Shown here: positions 1 through 3,000 of the stretch, in pieces
How the letters are laid out: every line of letters begins with the position of its first letter
How positions within the stretch are numbered: the first letter of the stretch is position 1
From: a virus
Lineage: Duplodnaviria; Heunggongvirae; Uroviricota; Caudoviricetes
Strand: one strand, 5' to 3'
Virus record (IMG/VR): IMGVR_UViG_2537561944_000027
Length of the DNA stretch: 27,837 nucleotides
Position numbers: made by a program

Positions 1-3000
1 ATGAAGTATGTCTTTATTGAAAAACATCAGGCTGAGTTCAGCATCAAAGCAATGTGCCGCGTGCTCCGGGTGGCCCGCAGCGGCTGGTATACGTGGTGTC
101 AGCGGCGGACAAGGATAAGCACGCGTCAGCAGTTCCGCCAACACTGCGACAGCGTTGTCCTCGCGGCTTTTACCCGGTCAAAACAGCGTTACGGTGCCCC
201 ACGCCTGACGGATGAACTGCGTGCTCAGGGTTACCCCTTTAACGTAAAAACCGTGGCGGCAAGCCTGCGCCGTCAGGGACTGAGGGCAAAGGCCTCCCGG
301 AAGTTCAGCCCGGTCAGCTACCGCGCACACGGCCTGCCTGTGTCAGAAAATCTGTTGGAGCAGGATTTTTACGCCAGTGGCCCGAACCAGAAGTGGGCAG
401 GAGACATCACGTACTTACGTACAGATGAAGGCTGGCTGTATCTGGCAGTGGTCATTGACCTGTAGTCACGTGCCGTTATTGGCTGGTCAATGTCGCCACG
501 CATGACGGCGCAACTGGCCTGCGATGCCCTGCAGATGGCGCTGTGGCGGCGTAAGAGGCCCCGGAACGTTATCGTTCACACGGACCGTGGAGGCCAGTAC
601 TGTTCAGCAGATTATCAGGCGCAACTGAAGCGGCATAATCTGCGTGGAAGTATGAGCGCAAAAGGTTGCTGCTACGATAATGCCTGCGTGGAAAGCTTCT
701 TTCATTCGCTGAAAGTGGAATGTATCCATGGAGAACACTTTATCAGCCGGGAAATAATGCGGGCAACGGTGTTTAATTATATCGAATGTGATTACAATCG
801 GTGGCGGCGGCACAGTTGGTGTGGCGGCCTCAGTCCGGAACAATTTGAAAACAAGAACCTCGCTTAGGCCTGTGTCCATATTACGTGGGTAGGATCACGC
901 AGGGGTCGGCCCATTTGAGCTTCAGATAGGAACGTTTGAATTCCTTTCACAAAATACATCACATACTGAACGTGAACATTCCCACTTTGATCTTAAGGCC
1001 AAAAAGTATGCAGGACTAATGATTTTTAGGGATAGCTTGAGAGTATTACCTTATGGTCGAGTAGATAATGATTTCTTCCAGATAGAAGAAAGACGTTCAT
1101 GGAATGCAGGGCGATATTATTGGTCTAATAGAAGGATTTTTGGTTATATTGGAATTACTCAATCCAGTAATAAAGAGCTGAAAGATAAGTCGGGGAGAGA
1201 GGGATTCATAAGAAACCAGGCTGCAAGAGAACTGAAAACTATTATATCTAATTTGTTAACTGAACTTGCTGATAGATTTTTTGGTTCACGTTCTGATGAC
1301 CGTAAAGAGCTTTTAGAACAAGTTAAGCGTGAAAAAGAGTTAAGAAAATCTGCTCAACAACAAGCTCGAAAATCAACACAAAAAAGTTTTTCAGAAGCTT
1401 TGAAGAATCAGACACCAGTTCTTGATGCTTCCTTGGAGGCTGTTAAAAGGCTGAAAACTAAGCTTGATAAAACTGATGGTTCGTTAGATTTAAACTATCT
1501 TAAAATTATAGACAGTGATCTTACAAACTTAGATGCGTTGCGCAGTGAAATTAAAACGCCTATCAAACCTCCAAAACTTGGAATGTATGAAGAGAAATAT
1601 AGAGACTACAGAGATAAATTTAATGAGTTCTCTGCGTATATTCTACAAATGAAGTTAGCAATTAATAAACTTGATTCTGAATTAAATAAACTTGAGCCTT
1701 CATTGTCAGCGAAAAATCACCTTGAAAAAAATCAAGGTATTATTAATTCTAAACTAACTAAGTTTAATAACACGATAGAGGAGAAGATACATTCTCTTTT
1801 AAAAAAATGGGCCGATGAAATAAAGGTTGATCGAAGTGATTATTATGCTAAAACTATATCAGTTGTTGATTCAATAGATAATGATTCACAAATTGAAAAT
1901 GTGTTTAATTTGCTCGATAGTTTATATGTTGAGTCAGTTGATACCCTAACTTTCAAATATCAATCAATAATAAAAGGTCTCGATAGATTATTTGAAGGTA
2001 TAAACTTAGATTCAGCATTCTCATTATCTGAAGAAGAACGCTCATATTTTGAAGAAAAAGCTAAAAGTTTAAACGCGCTTGCACAGTTAGGTATTAGTGT
2101 TGAGATAATATCTCATGAACTTGAAGAAATGGATTCTATGGTAACCAGAGGACTAAACTCTCTTCCTACTTCTGTAAAAGAACACCCTGGTTTTTCATTG
2201 GCGTTAAATGCTCACAGATCGCTTACTCAACAAATACGTTTCTTATCACCTTTGAAAATATCAGGTTATCAATCCAGGCAGAGAATAACTGGAAAAAATA
2301 TCATGGATTATGTCCTGAAGTTCTTTGGGGAGCGTTTCGAACGGCAACGAATAACTATTGAATTTAGTGAAGAGTTTAAGCAAATCGCAATAACAGATAT
2401 ACCATTAAGGATCTATCCTGTTTTTACTAATATTATCAACAATGCAATGTATTGGGTCAGTCTGTCAAATAATAGGCTCATAAAGATTGGTTTTGTGAAT
2501 TCTTTGGTTATCATAGCAAATTCTGGTCCGGCAATTGATACCGATGATATCCCGCGACTATTTGAACTATTTTATAGCAAAAGAGCAAATGGACATGGGG
2601 TAGGTCTGTATCTATGTCGAGAAAACCTTGCTGTTGCACATCATAAAATATGGTATTCAGAACCTGATGAAGGCGATAACTATTTAATAAAAGATGGCGC
2701 TAATTTTGTGATCCAGTTCAATGGAGTGGAGTTCTAATATGACAGTGGCAAATTATAATTCTCTTGTCCAGAAAACTTTCTGCGAAAATGCAATTCGTTC
2801 CGTTGTCATGATTGATGACGATTTTCTGACGTATTCTGAATCAATCAGGGCGTTGAATAACGAAGTTGATTTAGACTACAACAAAATTGACTCATCTAAA
2901 CGAGCCGCTACTCTTGAGAGCTTTTTTCAATCTAAAAATATGATTTGTGATGTTGACAATGGTTCTGTTAATTTCGATGTGGATCGGATTAGAAAATCAG

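Follow-up and report, generated by a model that had tools for sequence, protein, structure and literature searches.

The locus at the left end of IMG/VR virus record IMGVR_UViG_2537561944_000027, a stretch of 27,837 nucleotides (nt) that is referred to here in its whole length as the window, raises the question of whether a histidine-kinase-like gene lying directly beside an insertion sequence (IS) is a native short gene or the remainder of a longer one and, in the latter case, how the missing part was lost and whether the remainder can still be at work. The gene in question is the open reading frame (ORF) at 1019-2737 on the plus strand, annotated in RefSeq as a 572-residue 'ATP-binding protein' (WP_000577251.1), and Pfam matches and homologues identify it as residues 417-988 of a longer, intact protein. 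Comparison with these relatives indicates that the ORF is 5'-truncated, only the codons from the third base of 376 up to 988 being kept, which amounts to the rear 60 % of the gene, and we consider it probable that it represents a dead or nearly dead remnant left after a deletion associated with IS3.

The ORF encodes a coiled-coil linker, an HEF_HK domain (2084-2260) with the H-box histidine codon at 2114-2116, and an HATPase_c domain (2402-2677). For the translation from position 893 onwards, Pfam scores were 26.2 bits for PF19191 (HEF_HK, cut-off 24.1) and 44.6 bits for PF02518 (HATPase_c, cut-off 26.4), and the pair H782/E783, invariant in the family alignment of full-length homologues, is kept. 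Homologues in Salmonella, Klebsiella and Serratia that are 99 % identical to the window ORF are 988 amino acids (aa) long and carry an additional N-terminal HATPase_c_3 domain (PF13589, GHKL/paraMORC-like) at residues 28-137, for which there is no Pfam match in the window ORF, where the deletion breakpoint falls at codon 376. The initial annotation had suspected a kinase gene truncated at its 5' end by the IS and had suggested a comparison with homologous loci lacking the IS; that comparison supports the suspicion, the homologues reaching about 375 codons further upstream. In blastn, window positions 897-6443 align at 98.7 % identity with an intact Salmonella locus (L002 9127-14670) and, as the intact gene starts at L002 8001, window position 898 corresponds to base three of codon 376 and the ATG at 1019 to Met417. 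The coding sequence removed amounts to 1,127 nt and comprises part of a middle domain and the GHKL ATPase domain in its entirety; the Bergerat motifs of the latter do not vary among the 43 aligned full-length homologues. Among the best 150 relatives in 1.84 billion representatives, 106 are at least 885 aa long, and the first residues of the query align to their residues ~316-486. An AlphaFold model of the intact 988-aa protein, built with 43 sequences all at least 61 % identical, reached a mean predicted local distance difference test (pLDDT) score of 61, with the N-terminal domain below 50, which made it too poor for a fold search; it gives a weak hint that the break may fall inside a beta-rich middle domain.

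Direct reading of the sequence at the junction agrees with the initial annotation on the reading frames and on the ribosome-binding site. The kinase frame has a TAG at 890-892 and is open from 893 to the first ATG at 1019, with no in-frame ATG, GTG or TTG in between, the other two forward frames end soon after the junction at TGA 916-918 and TAG 927-929, and the sole Shine-Dalgarno-like element before the ATG is a weak AGGAC at 1012-1016, 3 nt away from it. An open stretch of 42 codons is by itself weak evidence, since by rough arithmetic, (61/64)^42, it would occur by chance about once in eight times; it is taken as real because codons 377-416 upstream of the ATG match those of the 988-aa homologues. 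These leftover in-frame codons, 376-416 (898-1018, plus strand), belong to the middle domain of the N-terminal ATPase module, their translation matches the intact proteins and, lacking a start codon, they are untranslatable as they stand.

The position of the IS terminus, initially put at ~924, was revised. It maps to 897 (...GGGTAGGATCA, followed by CGCAGGGG), where thousands of other copies in Escherichia coli (E. coli) lose their match exactly: a junction-spanning query gave 14,289 matches in 3,975 genomes, and matches elsewhere end at query position 398, which is window position 897. Homology to the intact kinase gene begins at 897/898, at the IS3 end, and all the 561 E. coli carriers described below begin to match at this junction or a few bases inside it. 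By blastn, by direct reading and in the carriers, the deletion junction (897-898) thus joins the end of IS3 to the third base of codon 376, and the TAG at 890-892 consequently sits within the inverted repeat of the IS.

The element itself had been called IS911-like, an identity that we reject, as it is IS3 itself, IS911 and IS3 both being members of the IS3 family. Positions 1-897 of the window (plus strand) constitute the 3' part (897 nt) of an IS3 that is complete at 1258 bp (IS3 positions 362-1258), delimited by the match ends of other copies and annotated by RefSeq as an IS3 transposase pseudogene; the stop codon of orfB lies at 865-867 and the right inverted repeat ends in ...GGATCA at 897. 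In the O26 parent genome (locus L001) the element spans 1258 bp with matching imperfect inverted repeats, TGATC...GATCA, and RefSeq names it at this locus an IS3-like element IS3 family transposase with programmed frameshift (orfA/orfB). It is 99-100 % identical to thousands of E. coli IS3 copies, the BL21 copy being 100 % identical. The window copy has a nonsense codon in orfB at 463-465 (TGG to TAG, G464A relative to its counterpart at this site in strain GF153, whose orfB is intact and free of this nonsense codon) and is therefore unable to make its own transposase.

The initial annotation further held that the IS had inserted into the gene, which would place the 5' part across IS3. It is not there. 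The E. coli O26:H11 chromosomes, which share 99.9-100 % identity with the window, have to the left of IS3 an alpha-amylase pseudogene that resembles ygaQ and lacks its 5' end; the 19 bases directly ahead of the element are native ygaQ sequence, and genomes without the island have the order glaH, ygaQ (2253 nt), tRNA-Ile, ypjC. Since the other flank is ygaQ, IS3 bounds a deletion and not a simple insertion. At the other end of the remnant in strain GF153 follow integrase, ssrA and smpB, an order from which it can be deduced that the island was integrated at ssrA. In the intact loci, the 3' end of a gene for a C5 cytosine DNA methylase extends 20 nt into the kinase gene, with a relaxase gene located further upstream. 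Downstream of the kinase, these loci share the gene order of the window: Response_reg_2, the 138-aa gene, integrase. Missing from the window are the methylase, whose place upstream of the kinase is taken by IS3, the upstream island with the relaxase, and the chromosomal genes up to the middle of ygaQ.

In the mechanism that we propose, the ancestral mobilisable island at ssrA would have carried a three-gene operon for a C5 methylase, a 988-aa ATPase/kinase and a receiver-domain protein; in the second of these, a GHKL (paraMORC-like) ATPase at the N-terminus is followed by a coiled coil and by an HEF_HK plus HATPase_c histidine-kinase core. An IS3-associated deletion would then have joined kinase codon 376 to the middle of the chromosomal ygaQ, either by recombination between two IS3 copies or by intramolecular transposition of IS3, the sequence fitting both, and it is possible that a simple insertion came first and that the deletion started from that IS3. 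Along with the 1,127 nt of kinase coding sequence and the methylase, the event would have taken the operon promoter, the translational coupling, the mobilisation genes and the intervening chromosomal genes. If the trio works like a restriction-modification system, the joint loss of methylase and ATPase module may be what made the deletion tolerable. As in known IS3-family adjacent deletions, a complete IS3 joins sequences that are not neighbours elsewhere and further small deletions by IS ends occur in derived strains; compared with those, nothing here is unusual.

The remnant is present in 561 of the 5,426 complete E. coli genomes, always on the chromosome and always broken at the same codon, and the carriers, about 10 % of these genomes, include O26, O103 and O111 Shiga-toxin strains. 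DNA of the methylase and the 5' part of the kinase gave no megablast match in any of the 5,426. The break in E. coli has a single origin.

Proteins of 572 aa are also annotated in Salmonella, Klebsiella, Pectobacterium, Yersinia and Morganella, and intact homologues starting at the equivalent of the ATG at 1019 would speak for a native short form. At neither of the two loci inspected, one from Salmonella and one from Klebsiella pneumoniae, was such a homologue found. The Salmonella locus (L006 3984-6983) holds an ORF uninterrupted for 999 codons, so that the start of the 572-aa call lies ~427 codons too late, and at the K. pneumoniae locus (L017 1725-4719) a frameshift splits the gene into a 314-aa GHKL piece and a 572-aa piece. 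Read in this way, both of the inspected calls in other genera are artefacts, the one of a miscalled start and the other of a split gene. Start-site calling elsewhere may be influenced by the abundance of the truncated E. coli protein, and the miscalled proteins may be inflating the published 'group 2' architecture class, which is described as lacking the N-terminal domain and comprises 34 of 222 proteins (PMC8011034). Among the E. coli 572-aa variants themselves, thirty-odd near-identical entries (P0014-P0047) each have a different substitution in residues 263-278; rather than as a mutational hotspot, this is read most likely as a by-product of k-mer-based clustering, in which hashed-word variants escape the main cluster.

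The breakpoint and the loss of the domains and of the methylase are seen directly in the compared loci, and so is further decay, which was sampled in evenly spaced carriers, 60 for the kinase remnant and 39 for the regulator gene that follows it. About 4 of the 60 kinase remnants are altered, by an IS600 insertion, by alignments that exceed the query length by 1 and 2 bp (not inspected) and by a microhomology deletion. The regulator gene is altered in about 8 of 39, by two IS3-family insertions, one ISVsa5 insertion and five spans longer by 2 bp, and the one such row that was inspected, that of GF153, is flagged as frameshifted by RefSeq. A cluster of 453-aa truncated regulators has 1,605 member sequences, a length that matches the IS-truncated regulator gene of strain UTAK-10 (1,362 nt). 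Within the remnant, beside the N-box of the ATP-binding domain, a TTA (Leu) at 2405-2407 (plus strand), specific to the O26-type allele, stands in place of the family serine (S879 in full-length numbering), which is found in 43 of 43 aligned full-length homologues, in all 114 database homologues with the D[IL]PxRIYP motif (38 of them E. coli-like) and in two other translated E. coli loci. The remnant differs from an intact allele by 6 nonsynonymous and 4 synonymous substitutions and two intact alleles differ from each other by 0 and 4, respectively; these counts, too small for a test of significance, lean towards relaxed constraint. That decay has continued speaks for a dead remnant and against an IS-driven module, and the remnant is probably not, or barely, expressed and devoid of activity.

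A number of observations weigh against this reading. The 572-codon ORF is intact in ~93 % and the regulator gene in ~80 % of the sampled carrier rows, the H-box histidine, the N box and the G box are retained, and some of the length differences of 1-2 bp could be assembly errors, as gaps of homopolymer type occur in the window itself when it is compared with the O26 reference. There is no terminator between the IS3 orfB and the ORF, so that weak read-through transcripts are possible. The island is also young, being 98.7 % identical to the intact one, and for this reason little can be read from the intactness of its genes in either direction.

The strongest of the rival explanations builds on these points and takes the sensor-less kinase core and its receiver partner as a module that still works, transcribed by read-through from IS3, translated from Met417 and either constitutive or differently regulated. 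The retention of the ORFs in most of the 561 carriers and of the catalytic motifs would fit it, as would the 'group 2' proteins and the approximately 9 of the 150 representatives that are ~590-670 aa long, and the IS3 end contains a latent outward-facing -35/-10 pair (TTTAAT, 15 nt, TACAAT; 772-798, plus strand), a pattern that occurs once in the window. These hexamers have been described for the right end of IS3 ('3R'); in reporter work, however, no promoter activity could be detected for the wild-type right-end fragment, the reason for which it was chosen for study, and the last 50 bp of this end damp transcription (PMC12095673). Between orfB and the ATG at 1019, neither a sigma-70-like promoter nor a terminator was found, and 70 of the carriers have lost IS3 altogether. 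Of the two outcomes foreseen in the initial annotation, inactivation or outward transcription from the IS, the former thus appears better supported, whereas the latter finds no promoter-like site at the junction, a wild-type IS3 end lacking detectable promoter activity and carriers devoid of the element. The native promoter, coupling and start are gone, leaving only the SD-like AGGA noted above; the partner gene has been disrupted several times independently; S879L affects an invariant site; both inspected short-form annotations were artefacts; and the first ~60 residues of the ORF may, in a low-confidence model, be an orphan fragment of a larger domain. On balance we regard a working module as unlikely. 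Somewhat less likely still is that the truncated core and its receiver-effector have been kept by E. coli as a module that works independently of the methylase, for instance as a switch in defence or stress; read-through or a mutated IS3 end would then drive expression, and the paraMORC ATPase would be a dispensable regulator and not the engine of the system.

According to another explanation, the deletion arose first and without an IS, and IS3 was inserted later at the junction by chance, so that it did not cause the truncation. It draws on the 70 carriers that have no IS3 between ygaQ and the remnant. Their junctions (L009, L014, L015, L016) take at least four forms, each short of a few ygaQ and/or kinase bases: compared with the IS3-bearing form they lack 6-24 bases of ygaQ and up to 3 of the kinase gene. 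As the IS-less forms are short of bases kept in the IS3-bearing form, the latter is ancestral: it cannot derive from any of the IS-less forms, whereas all of these can derive from it. Judged by these junctions, IS3 has been lost from between ygaQ and the kinase repeatedly, at least four separate times, with small adjacent deletions, and an IS-free origin of the truncation is very improbable. One of the IS-less junctions holds a 2-bp filler (CG), and in a fifth derivative, known from one strain (L010), an 8-bp microhomology (CTTGCTGA) fuses the 5' part of IS3 to the kinase remnant.

A simple insertion of IS3 into an otherwise intact gene, with the 5' part just past the other IS end, would agree with an element complete at 1258 bp with both inverted repeats and with a break coinciding with the IS terminus to the base, but with ygaQ on the other flank and with the 5' part and methylase found in none of the complete genomes it is refuted as the present structure and is the least probable of all. 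Simple insertion of IS3 is expected to produce a 3-bp target-site duplication; the flanks here, TCT and CGC, form no direct repeat, as expected of a rearrangement junction, and since a control copy in BL21 is likewise without one, this argument is given little weight.

The preferred reading, a remnant left by an IS3-associated deletion, can be set against what is known of related systems. The PF19191 and PF19192 families were defined by Bellieny-Rabelo, Pretorius & Moleleki (2021), who reported, without experiments, 91.6 % linkage of both genes, frequent upstream C5 methylases and an affinity to paraMORC, and described the HEF_HK family as soluble (PMC8011034). The locus resembles these HEF_HK / Response_reg_2 pairs in PF19191, PF02518 and PF19192, in the adjacency of the two genes and, in its intact relatives, in the C5 methylase upstream; unlike the full HEF_HK architecture ('group 1') with its linked methylase, the window copy is without the N-terminal HATPase_c_3 domain and the methylase, owing to the deletion. 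It therefore looks like 'group 2', yet as a product of truncation and not as a native architecture. No study with an experimental characterisation of the trio was found in the literature, and a Vibrio cholerae GHKL-Shedu paper that was considered deals with a different protein.

Residues 13-138 of the intact protein match, in addition to PF13589, the N-terminus of NF050001, the model of BbrUII/HgiDII restriction enzymes, with an E-value of 1.5e-13; the score of 50 against a cut-off of 550 bits indicates a shared domain and not membership of the family. ParaMORC and GHKL ATPases of restriction-modification systems were treated by Iyer, Abhiman & Aravind (2008), as cited in PMC8011034, and the region resembling the paraMORC ATPases and the BbrUII/HgiDII enzymes is precisely the part lost from the window. 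In PADLOC-DB 2.0 no match was obtained for either the intact or the truncated kinase and only a chance-level match for the regulator; the methylase alone matches, to type II, Druantia or DISARM methylase models. Like classical histidine kinases, the protein has a C-terminal ATP-binding domain that matches solved structures (3a0t/3a0r, E ~1e-11) and an H-box-like His-Glu. Unlike them, it has no membrane or PAS-type sensor and its partner has no DNA-binding output domain; Pfam gave no HisKA-type or N-terminal sensor domain in the intact or the truncated protein. The term 'sensor gene' in the initial annotation finds no support in its classical sense, the lost part being a GHKL ATPase module and not a membrane sensor domain. 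A restriction-like logic for the trio is plausible, in which the methylase would protect self DNA, the GHKL module would sense and phosphotransfer would turn on the effector.

For annotation, the consequence is that WP_000577251.1 and its variants, present in thousands of E. coli assemblies and listed in databases as an intact gene, represent a gene fragment and not a native short kinase, which is a caution against taking the short form as a native architecture. E. coli also offers a natural deletion of methylase and ATPase module together that has been tolerated, and this fits a restriction-like logic without proving it. Overall, the locus is a case of ordinary biology, the routine IS-mediated decay of a genomic island.

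The cognate Response_reg_2 gene (2739-4487, plus strand; PF19192, E 3.7e-31) starts 2 nt after the kinase stop codon, is intact in the window and encodes 582 aa with a receiver domain and a C-terminal region of ~400 aa. Residues ~190-582, the C-terminal two thirds, are predicted to adopt a confident fold (pLDDT ~87 overall) and showed no match to solved structures or Pfam. Invariant residues of the regulator include C436, C441, D442, P445, R554, Y557, R571, G573 and D575.

The rest of the retained island arm (4488-6443, minus strand), delimited by blastn and an NCBIfam integrase match, consists of the 138-aa hypothetical gene and a P4-type integrase (5012-6247), and island homology stops at ~6443, the ssrA-side end of the island. 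The 138-aa gene (~4559-4975, minus strand) is frameshifted at a T-run in the window and intact in O26 str. 11368 and Salmonella. Against the O26 reference, the window has three gaps in 8.8 kb (in the 138-aa gene, ~4559-4975, and in 5012-6289), which may be assembly errors in the source of the window. Beyond ~6443 and up to 27837 there is a lambdoid prophage that has an integrase of its own, together with a tRNA cluster at 24783-25034 with the anticodons CAT, TCG and TCT, an arrangement which indicates tandem occupancy of the ssrA site in the lineage of the window; the CAT tRNA is assigned to Met by ARAGORN and to Ile by RefSeq.

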